Source: a virus. From it: a DNA stretch of 64,000 nt. Every line of letters begins with the position of its first letter. The first letter of the stretch is position 1. The stretch spans positions 96,001 through 160,000 of the IMG/VR virus record IMGVR_UViG_3300042197_004429; one strand, 5' to 3'. Of this stretch, positions 17,104 to 58,431 are shown in pieces. The notes below the pieces were generated by a model, which saw only the letters and a program-made list of their open reading frames with translations, was not told where the DNA came from and searched no databases. Made by a program: the position numbers and the translations under genes.

Positions 17104-18042
17104 ATGTTAAATATTTGCAATGAAAACAATAAACATGTCATTTATCATTGGTGGAATGATAATATTAATATTAAACCATATGAAGATTTAAGAAATCCCG
17201 TGGTCTTATCTATTGCCACACTTAGATCTTTTCATAAAAAAATTCCGATTACGATTTTAGATGTTAGTGATTTTGAAAGACCAAAAGAAGATTGGGTTGA
17301 ATTTCAAAAAGCGTTAAATTTTCAAGTTGTAAAAACCAAAACAAGTATTGACACCTCGTCTCCAAGATATTGGAAAGTCTGTTCTAAGGTATCAGATATT
17401 TCTAAAAATATTCAATTTTTAAAAGAGGATAATATAATTTTTGTAGACTCCGATATTTTTTTTGTTAAACCTATTTTGCCTTTATCGTATGAAGATCACC
17501 TCGTTGATAAATTTTGTTGCTTACCTTACAACACCGGATTTTTTTATTTTAATCATAAATTAGAAAAAAATCAAAAAGTGCTTGAAATTTGGAACGAGAC
17601 AATAGTTGAAGCTTTAAAAAATGAAAACTTTTATGAAGAACTTCACAAAGTGATACCATATTATCCTTCTAAGAGTTTACATGATGAAATTTGTATGCAT
17701 TATTTGTTTAAACAAAAAAAGATAAATAATATAAAAAAATTAGATTTTGATGAAAGTTTTATATTTTCACAAGAACATATTTTTCTTGCAAACTACGGTA
17801 AATTTGATAATTTTGAGTTAATATTTAAAAAAATAAAATTTATACACGCTATTACCGCTTTTAATGGCAATAAAAGAGGAATTTTATGTTTATTGATTAA
17901 GGAGATAAATGATTTGATCAATAAATCTTTAAACAAGCGTTTGATCAAAAAAATATTTAGACACGAAATGCCCTTACCTTCTTATTGTATGTCGTCTATA
18001 ATGAGAATGACAAACAAGCAATTTAATTGTCTACTTAATTAA
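17104..18042 (+). CDS. Putative nucleotide-sugar transferase (GT-A-like)
   Basis: LSIATLR, FVDSDIFF (DxD), NTGFFYF, HDE. Confidence 0.55.
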   Translation: MLNICNENNKHVIYHWWNDNINIKPYEDLRNPVVLSIATLRSFHKKIPITILDVSDFERPKEDWVEFQKALNFQVVKTKTSIDTSSPRYWKVCSKVSDISKNIQFLKEDNIIFVDSDIFFVKPILPLSYEDHLVDKFCCLPYNTGFFYFNHKLEKNQKVLEIWNETIVEALKNENFYEELHKVIPYYPSKSLHDEICMHYLFKQKKINNIKKLDFDESFIFSQEHIFLANYGKFDNFELIFKKIKFIHAITAFNGNKRGILCLLIKEINDLINKSLNKRLIKKIFRHEMPLPSYCMSSIMRMTNKQFNCLLN

Positions 18043-19574
18043 TCATCTAAAGGAATTGAAATTAATTCTATTTCCTTATCCTTAAAATCCGACAGGGCAT
18101 CGTTATAGGTGTTACATATAGGTTTTCCCGGACCATTTAAACTTGTATTTATTAAGCACTCGCTCCCGGTCATTTTTCCATATTCGACAAGTAATTCATG
18201 TAACCAAGGATCTTTATTTTTATTCACAACCTGAGGTCTGCTGCTGTTGTCTTTGTGTACTATGGCCGGACACTCGGTTTGTGCTGCAAGGGTGCATTCA
18301 CACTTGAATTGCATGTATTCTCCCTTTGGTCCAATAAAGTATCGATCAAAACTCTCTTCTGTGACCATCGGAGCAAGTGGGCGATAATATTCTCTTCCTT
18401 TTAGATCTTGTGAAACACGTTTCAAATTTTGGTATTTACTAGCGTTTGCCAAAATGGATCTAAATCCTAAAGCCCTAGGCCCGCACTCAGCTTTTCCACG
18501 AAGTAAGCCGACCACTTTATCTTGCGCAATTAATTTTGCTATTTCTTTTGGCTCTTGAACCCCAGTTTTCGGCAAAGGCTCTTGAAGATACATAATTGAA
18601 GGAGTGTTCAAAGCTGGTGGCCATCTTCCTTTATCTAGAAAATAACCATAGCACGCTGCACCTAAAGCCAATCCGCTATCATTCACAGGCGGTCCAAAAA
18701 CAAAGTCTTTTGTAAGATTTGATATATTTGTATTTAATTCAAGTGCCAAACATGTTCCGCCACCAACTACTATGCCTAATTCTTTGTTGGGTGTAAAATT
18801 TTGTAAGTTTATTAGAATTTTTTCCCAAGTAAAATCCATCCATAATTTATATAATTTAGCCGATAATATCATGTCATTTTTACTAATATTTTTATTTTTA
18901 TTGAAATTAGGAACATCTAAGGGCCAAACTTTTTCAAAAATTGAGTAAATCAAACTTGAAACCTCACTGTTTTTAAATGAACCTAAATCTTCATTTAAAA
19001 ACCCAACGAGACCCATTGTTTTTCCAGCAGTGTCTCCTCCCAACAAATTTCCAACAATCCCGCTTGTTGGTATCTTTGGTTCTAGAACTTTTAAAGAAAA
19101 ACCATCTTCACCAATAAATCCCCCCAAACAAGAAGATGTCTCCCCATTTGCTGTTGATCCAGACCCATCATAGGCCATACAAAATCTTGTGTCATCATTT
19201 TCTCTAAATGACCAAGAACTCAAAATATGACATAAATGATGGTTTATGCAAAAATTTGGAAAATAATCACTCGGCAGATGGGAGCCTATACTCGTATCCG
19301 ACCACTTTGTTGCTATTATTGGATTAATCCAATAATTTATTGGGTTTGGGTTATTAAAAAAAGAAGGAAGACAAATGATGTCTTTTTTTTGAGGTTTTGG
19401 TAAAAATTTTAAAATGGGATTAATGTTATTGTAATACTTTTGTTTACTAAACCGAGATACTTCGGCATAGAACTCTAGTTCGCCATTTTCATTCAAAACA
19501 ACTGCCCCGAGGTCGTGGTTATAGGGATTTATACCAAAATATTTTTTTGTCATAATTAAAATCTCAATAAACAA
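18039..19574 (-). CDS. Carbamoyltransferase (NodU/CmcH/TobZ family), paralog 1
   Basis: HHLCH, YDGSG, GGGTCLALELN, PPVNDSG.ALG, GPRALG.RSILA, YRPLAP, RPQVV, INTSLN. Confidence 0.9.
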   Translation of the reverse strand: MFIEILIMTKKYFGINPYNHDLGAVVLNENGELEFYAEVSRFSKQKYYNNINPILKFLPKPQKKDIICLPSFFNNPNPINYWINPIIATKWSDTSIGSHLPSDYFPNFCINHHLCHILSSWSFRENDDTRFCMAYDGSGSTANGETSSCLGGFIGEDGFSLKVLEPKIPTSGIVGNLLGGDTAGKTMGLVGFLNEDLGSFKNSEVSSLIYSIFEKVWPLDVPNFNKNKNISKNDMILSAKLYKLWMDFTWEKILINLQNFTPNKELGIVVGGGTCLALELNTNISNLTKDFVFGPPVNDSGLALGAACYGYFLDKGRWPPALNTPSIMYLQEPLPKTGVQEPKEIAKLIAQDKVVGLLRGKAECGPRALGFRSILANASKYQNLKRVSQDLKGREYYRPLAPMVTEESFDRYFIGPKGEYMQFKCECTLAAQTECPAIVHKDNSSRPQVVNKNKDPWLHELLVEYGKMTGSECLINTSLNGPGKPICNTYNDALSDFKDKEIELISIPLDD

Positions 19575-19597: not shown

Positions 19598-20662
19598 ATG
19601 GCTATAATTAAATCTTTTTGTAATCTTCCTTGGACCAGAATGAAGATTCACTACAATGGTGATGTTTCTATGTGTTGTCATCAATCTTATTTTAGATTGG
19701 GAAATATATTAGAAGAAGATTGGGATAAAATATGGTTTGGTTCAAAAGCAAAAGAAATTAGAGAAACAACTTTGAAAAATCAACTACATGATAATTGTAA
19801 AAAACCTGAGTGTCCTTTCTTCAACGCAGACTTAAACAAAACACGGTTATTCGACATAAACGATAACGAATACCCATCAGAAATAGAATTTGATCTTCAT
19901 GCTTCTCATTGTAATTTTGGAGGTAAAAAAGCTGATCCTGAAAATACATGTATTATGTGTCCCAGATCCTATCCGGAGGTCGCTCAATCTCTAGGCTTAA
20001 TAAAAGATAATGCAAATATTATAGTTGAAAAAATTAAACCCATTTTACCGCATATCAATAGTTTGGCTGTCATGGGATTGGCAGAAATTTTTTGGCAAAA
20101 CAAAATATTTGAAATTTTTGATTTGTTGTCTTTTAAAGATTATAATAATAAAATTTCTTTTTGGGCCAATACGAATGGATCAGTATTTGACCAAAAATCC
20201 GCAGAAAAATTTTCTGATTATGTTCGAAAAAGTGTTATTTGTTTTTCAATTGACGCCTCTAACAAAGAAACTTATCTTAAGATAAGAAAAAATAATGTTT
20301 TTGATAAAGTAATAAGTAATCTTAAAAACTGGAATAAAATTAGAAAAAATTTAAACAAACTAGGAGACGACCATCAACTTTCTATTTACAATAATATAAA
20401 TCTACTAAATGTAAATGAAGTCTCTGACATGGTGGTAATGGCCAAGGAACTTGAAGTCGATGCAATTTATTTAACTCTTACCCATAATGTTGGTAATTTG
20501 CAAAATTTGAATACTCTTGTAATCAATAGTAAGAATTGGCGAATTTTCAGTGAAGCCGAGGAACGGGCAAGAAAAATTGGCGAACAGTTGAATTTCAAAG
20601 TTCACATTTGCAGACCTTTCGATGCAGGTTTTTCACAAAAACTTTATAATATAAGTTTTTAA
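19598..20662 (+). CDS. Radical SAM protein with N-terminal SPASM/twitch domain (paralog 3)
   Basis: CNLPW..CC; C-x12-C-x2-C; NTNGS, FSIDASNKETY.KIR. Confidence 0.8.
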   Translation: MAIIKSFCNLPWTRMKIHYNGDVSMCCHQSYFRLGNILEEDWDKIWFGSKAKEIRETTLKNQLHDNCKKPECPFFNADLNKTRLFDINDNEYPSEIEFDLHASHCNFGGKKADPENTCIMCPRSYPEVAQSLGLIKDNANIIVEKIKPILPHINSLAVMGLAEIFWQNKIFEIFDLLSFKDYNNKISFWANTNGSVFDQKSAEKFSDYVRKSVICFSIDASNKETYLKIRKNNVFDKVISNLKNWNKIRKNLNKLGDDHQLSIYNNINLLNVNEVSDMVVMAKELEVDAIYLTLTHNVGNLQNLNTLVINSKNWRIFSEAEERARKIGEQLNFKVHICRPFDAGFSQKLYNISF

Positions 20663-22197
20663 TAGACTCTACTATTGAAATTTTTACAGAATTTACTGGC
20701 TTGTTCAGGTATTGAGATTAAATCTAATTCTTTTCCATCCATATCGCTCACAGCATGCTCATAAGTATTACAAATAGGTTTTCCTGCTCTATTTAATGAT
20801 GTGTTTATGAAACATTGATGACCTGTAATTTTCCCATACTCTGTGAGAATTTCATGTAACCAAGGATCTTTTTCTTTGTAAACAACTTGCGGCCTTGAAG
20901 ATAGATCACGATGCACAATTGCAGGCAAATGTTCTTGACATTCTTTTGTACATTCACACCGATACTGCATGTATTCTCCCTTCGGTCCAATAAAGTATTT
21001 GTTAAACTCTTCATTTGTTACTATGGGTGCAACGGGCCTATAGAACTCTCGTCCTTTTATCGTCTCAGAAACTATTTTTAAATTTTCGTATTTTGTTGCC
21101 GATGCAAAAATTGAACGAAAACCCAAAGCACGAGGCCCAGCCTCGCTTTTTCCACGAAGTAATCCCACCACTTTATCTTGCGCAATTAATTTTGCTATTT
21201 CTTTTGGCTCTTGTGGGCCTTTTTGAGGCAAAGATTTATGAATATCATTAATTGCTGGCGTGCTTATCTTATTGGGCCAACTTTTATTCGCATGAAAATA
21301 ACCAAAGACAGCCGCCCCCAAACACAACCCGGTATCATTTATTGGTGGGCAAAAAACCACATCATCTGTGTATTTGGTAACCCTGGTGTTTAATTCTAAA
21401 GCGAGTGCTGTTCCTCCGCTTAATACAATTCCACGATTTTGTTTGTATTTTTCAATATTTTGTTTTAATTTTTCCCAAATTTCTTCAATAATAAATTTAT
21501 AAAAACCTGATATGAATTCCAAATCTGATTGGGATGGGTTATTAAAATGAGGAAAACATGGATCAAAATTATAATAATTCATTGTAGAATTTATTAACTT
21601 TAAAAAGTTTTCTTTGTTAAATTCTAATTTGTTTGGAATAAAACCCGACAGTCCCATTGCTTTTCCAGGTGTGTTGACTCCAAGCAAGTGAGACACGGGT
21701 ATACTTGTTGGAATTGCTATTGATTCGTCAAATTTTTTGAATTCATTTTGATTTATTAATCCTACCAAAGAAGATTTTAAAGGTTTTGAAAAATCTGCCG
21801 TTGGCCCACAGCCGTCAAAAGATATAAATAGTCTTTCGTTATCATTGGGTCTATAAAGCCAAGATGCAAAAGTATGTGCTAAATGATGATCTAAAACAAA
21901 ATGCAAGCTATTTCTACCATGTCCACCAAAAGGATTAGATTTTAATTGTCTAACCAACGTTTCATCGTATCCATCCACAGTAAAAGATTCTTCAAGTGCA
22001 TAAGTCGATGTAAAAATATATTCTTCGTTAATATCCAGAAGATGCGGGAAAGAGGCTAAAATTGGTCCAATGTTATTTGCCATGCATTTAAATCTTGGTT
22101 CATATCTTTCACTTTGTGCATAAAATTCTAAATCTCCATTTTCATCAATTATTGCAATTGATGAATCGTGACCCATATGATAGCCTACATATTTCAT
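20659..22197 (-). CDS. Carbamoyltransferase (NodU/CmcH/TobZ family), paralog 2
   Basis: GHDSS, HHLAH, FDGCG, GPRALGFRSI, FYRPVAP, INTSLN. Confidence 0.9.
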   Translation of the reverse strand: MKYVGYHMGHDSSIAIIDENGDLEFYAQSERYEPRFKCMANNIGPILASFPHLLDINEEYIFTSTYALEESFTVDGYDETLVRQLKSNPFGGHGRNSLHFVLDHHLAHTFASWLYRPNDNERLFISFDGCGPTADFSKPLKSSLVGLINQNEFKKFDESIAIPTSIPVSHLLGVNTPGKAMGLSGFIPNKLEFNKENFLKLINSTMNYYNFDPCFPHFNNPSQSDLEFISGFYKFIIEEIWEKLKQNIEKYKQNRGIVLSGGTALALELNTRVTKYTDDVVFCPPINDTGLCLGAAVFGYFHANKSWPNKISTPAINDIHKSLPQKGPQEPKEIAKLIAQDKVVGLLRGKSEAGPRALGFRSIFASATKYENLKIVSETIKGREFYRPVAPIVTNEEFNKYFIGPKGEYMQYRCECTKECQEHLPAIVHRDLSSRPQVVYKEKDPWLHEILTEYGKITGHQCFINTSLNRAGKPICNTYEHAVSDMDGKELDLISIPEQASKFCKNFNSRVY

Positions 22198-55925: not shown

Positions 55926-56536
55926 ATGCAGGATTACTGGACTGATCTTGAATCAAGAGCGGCAATAAATTTGATTTGTGCTTTGGACGCAGAGATAGTA
56001 GCCAAACAACAAACTATTTTGCTGTGCTGCGATAAAGATTTTCCAGAAATTTTTAGGCAAAAAATTTGGGATTCAATAAACAATCTGTCTCTTGAAACAG
56101 GGTCAGGTCGCATACAAGATAATGTCGATTTTTACAAACAATCAAAAAGAAGTTTGTTGCTTGGTTCTCTTAAAAACATTTGGCAAGAAATTGAAAGCAA
56201 AAACTATCCAACACGCTTTGGTATGCTCCTAGGTGATCCTGCAAGCAATCTTGCTGCTAGAGATTCGTATAACAAAGAAATGGAAGAATTTGACATTAAA
56301 CAAAGTGGCGAAACCAAATAAACAATACCAACTAGTAGCAGACAGTTTATGATTTTCTTGTTTTTATTTTTCTTGGTGATTGTTGCATTTGCAAATCAGA
56401 TTGCTCAATACTATCGGTACAATCTATTTCTTTATAAAAAAGAAATAGAGCAACGAGAATACGCAGAGTTTCAACTACAGATGCAGCGTGAACGTGCTAT
56501 TCAACAATTGAACAGAATTAGAAAATACTACGAAAA

Positions 56537-57184
56537 TTGACCATGATCAAAGTTATCAAACCACTACTGTGTACTAAACAGCATTATTTTGTTGCTGTTA
56601 GCATGGGCGTTGATAGTGTTGCTGCTTTGTTTTGGTTAAGATCTAAAGGATATTCTATTACTCCTTTGCATTTTAATCATAATTTACGTGCTCAAAATGG
56701 AACAATGCACGAACGATTTCTGAGTCTTTGCAAAGACTTGAATCTTAAGTGTGAAAGCGATATTGGCGTTGCACTCAAAACCGAAAATGATTGCCGACAA
56801 GCAAGATTAAATTTTTATTCAAGAGTTGCTAAGGGTGGAACAGTCATCACAGCCCACCATTTGAATGATTGGGTTGAAAGTTATCTGCTTAATTGTTTGC
56901 GTGGTCATCCTCGTCATAGCCCAATTAAATTTAAAAGTAAGTTTGAAGAATTTGATGTTGTTCATCCTTTTCTTTTAACTAGAAAAAAAGACTTTGAGCA
57001 ATATCTTGTTCGAAATAAATGGGATCACTATGTTGTAAAAGATGAATCGAATTTAGTTTCAAAAGGAAGCAGAAGAAACTGGATTAGAAACACTATTCTT
57101 CCACAAATGCAATCCCAAAAATTATCACTCGAAAAATTTGCCAGAAAAAAGATTCAAACAATGCTGGTAAAGATCGAACATTGA
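56537..57184 (+). CDS. tilS: tRNA(Ile)-lysidine synthetase, minimal catalytic domain
   Basis: VAVSMGVDS (PP-loop variant), HFNHNLR, R..R..F, TAHHLND..E, HPFL, DESN, RRNWIRN; lacks the C-terminal domains. Confidence 0.85.
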   Translation: MTMIKVIKPLLCTKQHYFVAVSMGVDSVAALFWLRSKGYSITPLHFNHNLRAQNGTMHERFLSLCKDLNLKCESDIGVALKTENDCRQARLNFYSRVAKGGTVITAHHLNDWVESYLLNCLRGHPRHSPIKFKSKFEEFDVVHPFLLTRKKDFEQYLVRNKWDHYVVKDESNLVSKGSRRNWIRNTILPQMQSQKLSLEKFARKKIQTMLVKIEH

Positions 57185-57445: not shown

Positions 57446-57509
57446 GATAGAATAAGTTTGATAAAATCAATTCACAACACCTTTTTTAGTTTAAATTAGA
57501 AAGTACAAA

Positions 57510-57665
57510 ATGATGAGTCGATATTTTTTTATTGTTGGAGCGTTCCTAAGTTTTCTTCTTAGTGTGGGAATTTGGTTCCTTTCCGGAAACGAAAGCCAAG
57601 CAATTTTTGTAGGAATATGGGTGCCAAGTATTCTTTGTTTGGGAAGGTATTTCGACAATGCCTAA
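57510..57665 (+). CDS. Small two-helix membrane protein (paralog A2; not in the ORF track)
   Basis: MMSRYFFIVGAFLSFLLSVGIWFLSGNESQAIFVGIWVPSILCLGRYFDNA*. Confidence 0.7.
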   Translation: MMSRYFFIVGAFLSFLLSVGIWFLSGNESQAIFVGIWVPSILCLGRYFDNA

Positions 57666-57864
57666 CCCTGTGTTATTTGTTTGTGGCTTGATCGTAACTC
57701 TTGTAAGCGGAATGGGAGTTTTGATTTACATAACAAGTCTAGGATACAAAGAAAAAAAGAAATATCCGGTTGAACCGGACATTGATTTGGGGGCACACGA
57801 TATTGATGCTAAAAAATTGAAATCATCCCTAGACAGTTTCATTGAAATACCATCAGTATCCTAA
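57658..57864 (+). CDS. Small single-pass membrane protein (paralog B1)
   Basis: LFVCGLIVTLVSGMGVLIY..LGYK. Confidence 0.65.
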   Translation: MPNPVLFVCGLIVTLVSGMGVLIYITSLGYKEKKKYPVEPDIDLGAHDIDAKKLKSSLDSFIEIPSVS

Positions 57865-57881: not shown

Positions 57882-58145
57882 CCGAAGGTAGCAAAACGGT
57901 TAATGCAACAGACTCATTTGAAAAAGTGCCATACGAGTGGAAACTTCGTATGGGATGGCATCAAATTCGGTGAAACCTAAATGCGAAAGCACATGGCAAT
58001 GCCGAGCGAAGCCCGCAAGGGAACGTGTAGAGACTTGACGGTGCCCACCTAAGTTGAAAAATAAGGTGAAGGCAAAGTCCAAGGAGTGATGAAAATCACA
58101 CAAACTTGAATCTGTAGACTGTGGGTTCGAATCCCACCCTTCGGA
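57882..58145 (+). tRNA. tRNA with CAU anticodon (probably Ile2, otherwise elongator Met), interrupted by a group I intron
   Basis: Exons 57882-57917 and 58109-58145. Acceptor ccgaagg/ccttcgg, D stem gca/tgc, anticodon stem acaga/tctgt with loop CT-CAT-AA, T arm gtggg-TTCGAAT-cccac, discriminator A; CCA not encoded. Confidence 0.92.
57918..58108 (+). ncRNA. Group I self-splicing intron (IC3, Azoarcus-like), 191 nt, no ORF
   Basis: P1 cat-tt-GAAA-aa-gtg with U.G at the splice site; P2 ccatacgag/ttcgtatgg; P4 ttcgg/ccgag; P7 region gagact/aagtcc; P8 cacct/aggtg; P9 gtgat-GAAA-atcac; terminal G. Confidence 0.92.
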
Positions 58146-58326
58146 CTTGTGTTTGATAAAGCATAAAAACTTTTTTAGTTCCTAAATTTTTGACACTAAC
58201 TAAAGGATTGGTAAAAAATATTTAGCAAGCACTACTTTATCATCATTTATTCCCCTGGTTTTGTTTTGGGTGTTGGTCTTGTCGCAATTTTTGTGTCCAG
58301 CACTCTGTGCTAAAGGAGGTGCTTTG

Positions 58327-58431
58327 ATGGATAATTTTTTGTTGTTTATATGCGGAACGGTGATATCATTAATTTCAGGGATGGGTGTGTTAGTTTATAT
58401 GGTTTTTTTGGGCTATAAAGACAAGGATTAA
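58327..58431 (+). CDS. Small membrane peptide (paralog B2; not in the ORF track)
   Basis: MDNFLLFICGTVISLISGMGVLVYMVFLGYKDKD*, SD AAGGAGGT. Confidence 0.65.
   Translation: MDNFLLFICGTVISLISGMGVLVYMVFLGYKDKD

Follow-up and report, generated by a model that had tools for sequence, protein, structure and literature searches.

The 191-nt insert that splits a phage tRNA(CAU) gene between tRNA positions 36 and 37 is, with high probability, a self-splicing group I intron of subgroup IC3, lying in a gene that would most likely encode tRNA-Ile2 with a lysidine at C34. The gene occupies positions 57882-58145 (+) of the 64,000-nt stretch of DNA analysed here (the window), which has a GC content of 34% and spans bases 96001-160000 of a virus record in IMG/VR, 177 kb long and estimated to be 74% complete. 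IMG/VR classes the contig as viral, and our own support for that call comes from PHROG matches to gene families of phage type (helicase, clamp-loader-like, ParB-like and PhoH-type). A weak match considered as a terminase candidate proved to be PhoH, and terminase searches were otherwise uninformative.

The first-pass annotation of this DNA had described a tRNA(CAU) gene split right after its anticodon by a 191-nt insert without an ORF, and both the sequence and splicing in silico confirmed this layout:

57882-57917 (+): 5' exon, 36 nt, tRNA positions 1-36, with the 3' end CUCAU and U57917 as U-1; from sequence and ARAGORN on the spliced form
57918-58108 (+): group I intron, IC3 (Azoarcus type), 191 nt, last base G, without an ORF; from Rfam RF00028, structure mapping and covariation
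58109-58145 (+): 3' exon, 37 nt, tRNA positions 37-73, with the 5' end AAUCUGU and A58145 as the discriminator; CCA is not encoded

Removal of the 191 nt produced a regular 74-nt cloverleaf with anticodon CAU, a 7-bp acceptor stem and a paired C1-G72 (ARAGORN). When run without intron mode, ARAGORN reported zero tRNAs anywhere in the window. The intron begins with UUGAAAAAGUG and ends with ACAAACUUG. It contains ORFs of 33 aa (+) and 67 aa (-) only, with no credible ORF of 30 aa or more, and neither the ORF list nor a Pfam scan of flanking ORFs within ~1.5 kb revealed an endonuclease ORF inside or directly beside it. Apart from the TilS-like gene described below (56537-57184), the flanking ORFs within this ~1.5 kb had no Pfam family match.

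The insert is a genuine Azoarcus-type (IC3) group I intron. The group I covariance model Intron_gpI (Rfam RF00028), proposed earlier as a check on its identity, matched 57906-58101 along the entire model (positions 1-253) with 56.1 bits against a gathering score of 50 (E = 1.4e-13), and in a whole-genome search this was the sole group I match in the whole contig. RF00028 gave no match when the whole window was searched under default filters, such that laxer filters or the whole-genome search were needed; automated annotation with default Rfam filters would overlook the intron too. We mapped the helices by homology and could draw all of the core pairings claimed for the insert with standard pairs, including the P1 U.G pair with the IGS GUG:

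57915-57928 (+): P1, exon CAU paired with guide GUG (57926-57928), U.G wobble at the 5' splice site, two further U-A pairs and a GAAA loop
57929-57953 (+): P2, a GAAA-tetraloop hairpin with compensatory changes in 9 of 10 pairs
57957-57962 (+): P3 5' strand, partner 58040-58045, 100% of cells paired, four pairs compensatory
57967-58005 (+): P4-P5-P5a domain, with the J4/5 adenines, a CCUAAA/CAUGG variant of the 11-nt GAAA receptor and a GAAA loop on P5a
58007-58025 (+): P6 and P6a, the truncated P6a having 3 bp and a GCAA loop; a P6 pair covaries CG/GC, 16:13
58030-58035 (+): P7 5' strand, with bulged A58031 and partner 58076-58080; the guanosine-binding helix, in a pseudoknot with P3
58040-58045 (+): P3 3' strand, from the covariation alignment
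58048-58066 (+): P8, with a CCUAAG/UAAGG receptor-like internal loop and a GAAA loop
58076-58080 (+): P7 3' strand, directly preceded by the conserved J8/7 segment GUGAAGGCAA
58082-58107 (+): P9.0 and P9, with A58082-U58106 and G58083-C58105 enclosing the P9 hairpin (58086-58099, GAAA loop), then one unpaired U before omega-G 58108

The model comprises 60 pairs, all of which are standard in the window sequence except for an A.C that replaces the G.U of the P5 receptor motif. GAAA tetraloops were found on P1, P5a and P9, where they had been reported, and also on P2 and P8, with a GCAA loop on P6a, none of which had been named before. The minimum free-energy fold scored z = -4.97 against shuffles and recovered the anticodon stem, P2, P4-P5a, P6a, P8 and P9. 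Compared to the canonical 11-nt receptor, P5 carries A.C for G.U and P8 carries UAAGG for UAUGG, and both variants recur in several relatives in the alignment. The L2 loop of the Azoarcus intron docks on J8 (PMC4705646); by homology, the P2 loop of the window intron would dock on J8 as well, with the receptor-like loop of P8 predicted to receive L2 and the receptor variant of P5 predicted to receive L9.

We then examined how well this fold is preserved among relatives. Core-motif searches with AAATTCGGNGAAACCTAA returned 37 viral contigs and at least 120 bacterial contigs, and from the CAU class we took 30 non-redundant introns for the covariation analysis, of which 9 were viral and 21 came from bacteria, mostly Betaproteobacteria. 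These were aligned by MAFFT with no structural input, and the window structure was projected onto the alignment. Standard pairs made up 93.0% of 1780 cells compared to 29-41% in slid controls, changes on both sides were present in 34 of the 60 pairs, and not one of 500 shuffles attained any of five covariation measures. P3, P6, P9 and P9.0 were 100% paired with compensatory changes and P4 was 97% paired; all five P7 pairs were invariant in the 30 sequences, as expected for the guanosine site. The AAA runs at 57963-57965 and 57973-57975 (the J3/4 and J4/5 adenines) occupied invariant columns, and the splice-site wobble U57917.G57926 was U.G in 29 of 30 aligned relatives. The Rfam E-value, the folding z-score and this covariation together exclude chance as the origin of the fold, and the intron would be expected to self-splice.

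It is highly improbable that the intron is a decayed relic that has lost splicing and left a dead tRNA gene. Such decay would be in keeping with the lack of a homing endonuclease to maintain mobility, and with receptors that are non-canonical, a P4 that ends in two neighbouring wobble pairs and a truncated P6a. However, the 93 positions that make up the invariant columns of the family are all kept in the window intron, its receptor variants are the same as in several relatives, and the 177-kb contig yielded no second CAU tRNA that could replace it. The nearest relative, on viral contig L020, is 87-90% identical (~90% over all 264 nt) and differs from the window at ten pairs, of which six are double compensatory changes, three are wobble-compatible single changes and one is broken. 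These compensatory changes since the split from L020 indicate that the fold is still under selection within the phage lineage. Covariation across the intron extends to the anticodon stem, where the window has a G-C pair and L020 an A-U pair. A maximum-likelihood tree of the 30 introns grouped the window with L020 and L012 in one clade (100/100) beside L018 (89/87), with the bacterial backbone unresolved. With this clade placed beside L018, whose tRNA is TilS-linked, the intron looks vertically inherited in a phage lineage along with a TilS-tRNA module. An exact search of viral contigs for the 5' exon found L012, L020 and L028 only, all of them intron-bearing, and thus no copy of this tRNA sequence without the intron; intronless alleles came to light solely in TilS-linked modules that are more distant.

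The 3' splice site is fixed by P9.0. One of its pairs is GC in 26 and AU in 4 of the 30 sequences and the other is GC in 23, AU in 4 and CG in 3, the two pairs switching in step, and omega-G sits two nucleotides past P9.0 in all aligned sequences, which places the site at G58108. The Azoarcus-type assignment, the shared insertion point and the predicted junction of CTCAT with AATCTGT all hold. The class to which the Azoarcus intron belongs in bacteria, termed Ile2.5Ug, is inserted between nucleotides 36 and 37 of tRNA-Ile2 CAU (Williams 2020), and the window intron has the same placement (CUCAU, intron, AA), after the fifth anticodon-loop nucleotide, with U-1 and omega-G present.

ARAGORN in intron mode read the gene differently, as a tRNA-Gln(UUG) with both splice sites 3 nt upstream and the junction ACU joined to UUGAAUCUGU. 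The 3-nt shift is possible because the intron starts and ends with UUG, TTG in the DNA, so that both readings yield a 7-nt loop. Under the Gln reading, however, the intron would end in C and its 5' boundary would lack the U.G pairing with the guide, omega-G would no longer be at the position fixed by the P9.0 covariation, the homologues in L020, L028 and L012 are compatible with CAU only, and the intronless TilS-linked homologues carry CAU. We therefore rejected the call on the basis of omega-G, P1, P9.0 and the homologues, and consider this reading almost certainly wrong. With the gene read as tRNA(CAU), it is one that standard finders either overlook or misname as Gln, so that the apparent tRNA set of this phage and its capacity to decode AUA are underestimated.

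A CAU anticodon can belong to tRNA-Ile2 or to tRNA-Met, and the gene upstream points to the former:

56537-57184 (+): TilS-like gene, encoding a 215-aa PP-loop protein with the TilS N-terminal catalytic domain, ~700 bp upstream of the tRNA

This protein scored 87.9 bits with Pfam PF01171 and 92.7 bits with TIGR02432, just under the NCBIfam cut-off of 93.6. Its sole PDB matches were three solved TilS structures, aligned to their N-terminal catalytic domains, and it is without the C-terminal domains that these enzymes have beyond the aligned region. The product is likely to modify C34 of the window tRNA, and its gene may be co-transcribed with that of the tRNA. Phage-encoded TilS has been reported for Pseudomonas phage MIJ3 (PMC6892783).

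A TilS homologue adjoins tRNA(CAU) in eight viral contigs including the window, with identities to the window protein of 26%-78%. In L020 and L028 (60% identity) and in L018 (26%), the homologue precedes an intron-bearing tRNA(CAU) by up to ~100 bp. In L278 (78%), L280 (66%) and L281/L282 (55%), it is followed after 25-300 bp by a tRNA(CAU) without an intron, the uninterrupted CTCATAA loop of which is the junction predicted for the window. The L279 homologue (64%) is found ~1 kb upstream of a tRNA(CAU) bearing a different 208-nt group I intron after U33 (CU/CAUAA; L279:4127-4409 (+)), and TilS-linked tRNA(CAU) genes thus carry introns at two loop positions. ARAGORN named the L279 gene 'tRNA-Stop(tta)', a call we rejected, as the anticodon is CAU and the intron follows U33. 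The catalytic-domain-only TilS family (window, L020, L028, L018, L278-L283) recurs in large phage contigs, the longest of 459 kb, and in most cases its gene immediately precedes tRNA(CAU). The L020 and L028 proteins end 25-100 bp before the tRNA and therefore have no C-terminal tRNA-binding domains. A TilS with the catalytic domain only raises the question of how tRNA-Ile2 is told from tRNA-Met.

The TilS linkage, the 35% share of ATA among the isoleucine codons of long ORFs in the contig and the absence of any other CAU anticodon among the tRNAs of the 177-kb contig (ARAGORN intron mode, whole contig) make it probable that the window tRNA is tRNA-Ile2, the identity of the Azoarcus host tRNA. 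An initiator tRNA was ruled out, as C1-G72 is paired and the anticodon stem does not have three G-C pairs. An elongator tRNA-Met, with the intron as described and the TilS-like gene acting on something else, is unlikely. ARAGORN, going by the anticodon only, does label the spliced gene tRNA-Met(cat), the TilS-like protein has the catalytic domain only and falls just below the NCBIfam cut-off, and L012, a close intron relative, had no TilS homologue within the 7.8 kb examined. Against this stand the recurrence of TilS homologues beside tRNA(CAU) in eight contigs across so wide a range of identity, the bacterial relatives of the intron, which belong to the Ile2.5Ug class of the Azoarcus tRNA-Ile intron (Williams 2020), and the heavy use of ATA by the phage.

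For a gene most likely encoding tRNA-Ile2, and by homology with the Azoarcus intron, splicing would proceed along the following path. On folding of the transcript, exon CAU would pair with guide GUG to form P1, with the U.G wobble at the splice site, and the GAAA loops of L2 and L9 would dock on the receptor motifs of P8 and P5. A free guanosine nucleotide bound in P7 would then attack after U57917. Omega-G (G58108), placed by P9.0, would subsequently occupy the same P7 site, and the 3'-OH of U36 would attack after G58108, joining CAU to AA and producing the anticodon loop CUCAUAA, with the exons held together throughout by the anticodon stem ACAGA/UCUGU. The ligated product is predicted to read CTCATAATCTGT across the junction. 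The spliced tRNA would gain its non-encoded CCA, the neighbouring TilS-like enzyme presumably turns C34 into lysidine, and the host IleRS would charge the tRNA, which would then read AUA.

The intron had also been described as a natural minimal ribozyme, 14 nt shorter than an Azoarcus intron of about 205 nt. The size difference is correct (191 nt versus the published 205 nt; PMC13168695), and among the matches listed the window intron is shorter than every bacterial member sampled, with same-class bacterial introns in those matches measuring 201-255 nt and most often 204-205 nt. MAFFT alignment attributed the 14-nt deficit relative to the 205-nt type to the P6a hairpin (~12 nt) and P5a (2 nt), with P1, P2 and P8 of usual length; the tertiary contacts listed for Azoarcus are L2/J8 and L9/J5, and P6a is not included (PMC4705646). 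Introns of similar or smaller size were present in other viral tRNA genes. Within the same class, the introns of L020 and L028 are also 191 nt long and that of L032 measures 190 nt (Rfam 55.9 bits), and four more, with boundaries checked by hand and a normal spliced cloverleaf in each case, were shorter still:

L240: tRNA-Lys(UUU), 184 nt, Rfam 38.3 bits, below cut-off, E = 2e-6
L231: tRNA-Lys(UUU), 185 nt, Rfam 44.1 bits, below cut-off
L258: CAU, 188 nt, Rfam 45.3 bits, ending in A instead of G
L213: tRNA-Leu(UAA), 189 nt, no Rfam score given

"Compact" is thus an apt description, and "minimal" overstates the case, because the missing nucleotides reflect trimming of P6a and P5a and because phage introns of 184-190 nt exist. 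The literature searched, with incomplete coverage that does not amount to proof, held no claim of a natural group I intron below 205 nt. As compact, naturally occurring versions of a well-studied model ribozyme, phage introns of 184-191 nt could be of use in work on folding or in engineering. The 188-nt CAU-class intron of L258 (L258:193-456 (+)) lies in a phage tRNA cluster and has an A where omega-G is expected, ending ...CAAAUCUA before AAUCCC. ARAGORN lengths of 129 nt (L063), 180 nt (L102), 190 nt (L042) and 162 nt (L231) were ghost-exon or truncated-locus artefacts that we corrected by inspection.

In the most plausible reading, the intron is an inherited passenger of the phage TilS-tRNA-Ile2 module, close to neutral in its phenotypic effect and with no function of its own. 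We saw no evidence of a function beyond self-removal, and a protective or timing role is improbable. The first-pass annotation had suggested that the intron might shield the anticodon loop from anticodon nucleases. This idea does not follow from the data, because the working tRNA is the spliced one, with a normal loop, because close TilS-tRNA modules function without an intron, and because the interrupted phage anticodons (UAA, UUU, UCU, UUC, GUU and CAU) all supply the U needed before the splice site, by a simple tally. The same three points weigh against a wider form of the proposal, in which the intron is kept as protection either of the RNA from anticodon nucleases or of the gene from endonucleases that cut the intact DNA of a tRNA anticodon loop. 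Introns do recur in many phage tRNA genes, which is nothing direct, and the TilS-linked tRNA family is interrupted at two different sites, but we regard retention for protection as very unlikely. There is also little probability to a scenario in which phage tRNA genes hold a pared-down series of IC3 ribozymes (~184-191 nt) and the TilS-tRNA-Ile2 intron is selectively retained, timing or protecting maturation or guarding the gene from nucleases of anticodon-loop DNA. If selective retention were true, the ribozymes of this series would be shorter than the 205-nt Azoarcus model, the intron would time or protect the maturation of a tRNA that, in its unmodified CAU form, would be misread as methionine, and the two intron sites in TilS-linked tRNA(CAU) genes would reflect recurrent selection instead of mere invasion.

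The window intron is a new, slightly trimmed phage member of the Azoarcus-type (IC3, Ile2.5Ug) class. It shares with the Azoarcus intron the type of tRNA gene, the site after U36 of CAU, the GUG guide and its pairing with exon CAU, the helices P1-P9 with P9.0, the lack of an ORF, and GAAA loops on L2 and L9 that face receptor motifs in P8 and P5. The core segments J3/4, J4/5, J6/7, P7 and J8/7 are near-identical to the Azoarcus type, as judged via betaproteobacterial relatives of 204-205 nt. It differs in its host genome, which is that of a large uncultured phage instead of a betaproteobacterium, and, again judged via the bacterial relatives, in its length (191 versus 205 nt), a P6a of 3 bp with GCAA, a P5a shorter by 2 nt, variants at both receptors and extra GNRA loops on P1, P5a, P6a and P8.

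Group I introns are plentiful in IMG/VR phage tRNA genes. Scans of viral contigs with two fixed core motifs gave at least 84 intron-split tRNA calls across 156 contigs, with the second motif alone contributing at least 60 further calls. These other phage introns (L020, L028, L012, L032, L018 and others; LR756501) resemble that of the window in being ORF-less, of subgroup IC3 and located in the anticodon loop. L020 and L028 are 90% identical to the window locus, with the same length and the same TilS neighbour, whereas most of the others interrupt Leu-UAA, Arg-UCU, Lys-UUU or Asn-GUU tRNAs or sit at other loop positions, with lengths from 184 to more than 260 nt. The introns of T4 td, nrdB and sunY and those of the SPO1, Twort and Bastille type are likewise self-splicing group I ribozymes of tailed phages, but they lie in protein-coding genes, often with homing endonuclease genes. 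No close relative was found in cultured phages, where the sole match to the intron core was an intron of this classical kind in the ribonucleotide reductase gene of Rhizobium phage RHph_N3_13. According to Hausner et al. 2014, all phage introns then known were in protein-coding genes, despite the many tRNA genes of phages (PMC3984707), and Devoto et al. 2019 described introns in phage tRNAs as previously unreported and left their own unclassified. In the literature we searched, no group I intron was described from a tRNA gene of a phage, though with incomplete coverage this is not proof.

Several other loci stood out. The public GenBank record of a 735-kb uncultured phage, L285 (LR756501.1), contains, at 1123-1413, an unannotated tRNA-Leu(UAA) with a 205-nt group I intron. 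Viral contigs L008, L017 and L026 have introns of ~193-200 nt in an exon context that fits tRNA-Asn(GUU); ARAGORN names these Pro or Tyr because it misplaces their splice sites. About 2 kb from the intron-split tRNA-Lys of L240, a permuted tmRNA match was present at L240:3451-3721 (-) (RF04321, 70.4 bits).

Within the window, promoter-like sites were no more frequent than in shuffled sequence, and terminator-like sites were somewhat enriched compared to shuffled sequence, with none framing the tRNA. Paralogous small hydrophobic peptides are encoded on either side of the tRNA gene, at 57658-57864 (+) and 58327-58431 (+). They are 58% identical over 33 aa, with ...SGMGVL.Y...LGYK common to both, and a 19-nt repeat lies upstream of each ORF (57473-57491 and 58162-58180), such that the arrangement resembles a small-ORF cassette that has been duplicated, one copy on each side of the tRNA. 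With up to one mismatch allowed, the window has 19 copies of the motif RATACYAACTAR on the + strand, compared to 2 expected. Copies are found at 56324-56335, just 5' of the ORF ahead of the TilS-like gene, and at 58192-58203, just 3' of the tRNA, suggesting that the TilS-like gene and the tRNA may form one motif-bounded unit. Elsewhere in the window, paralogues of a Nol-like carbamoyltransferase are encoded at 18039-19574 (-) and 20659-22197 (-) (phrog_1601, E = 2e-68 and 2e-74).
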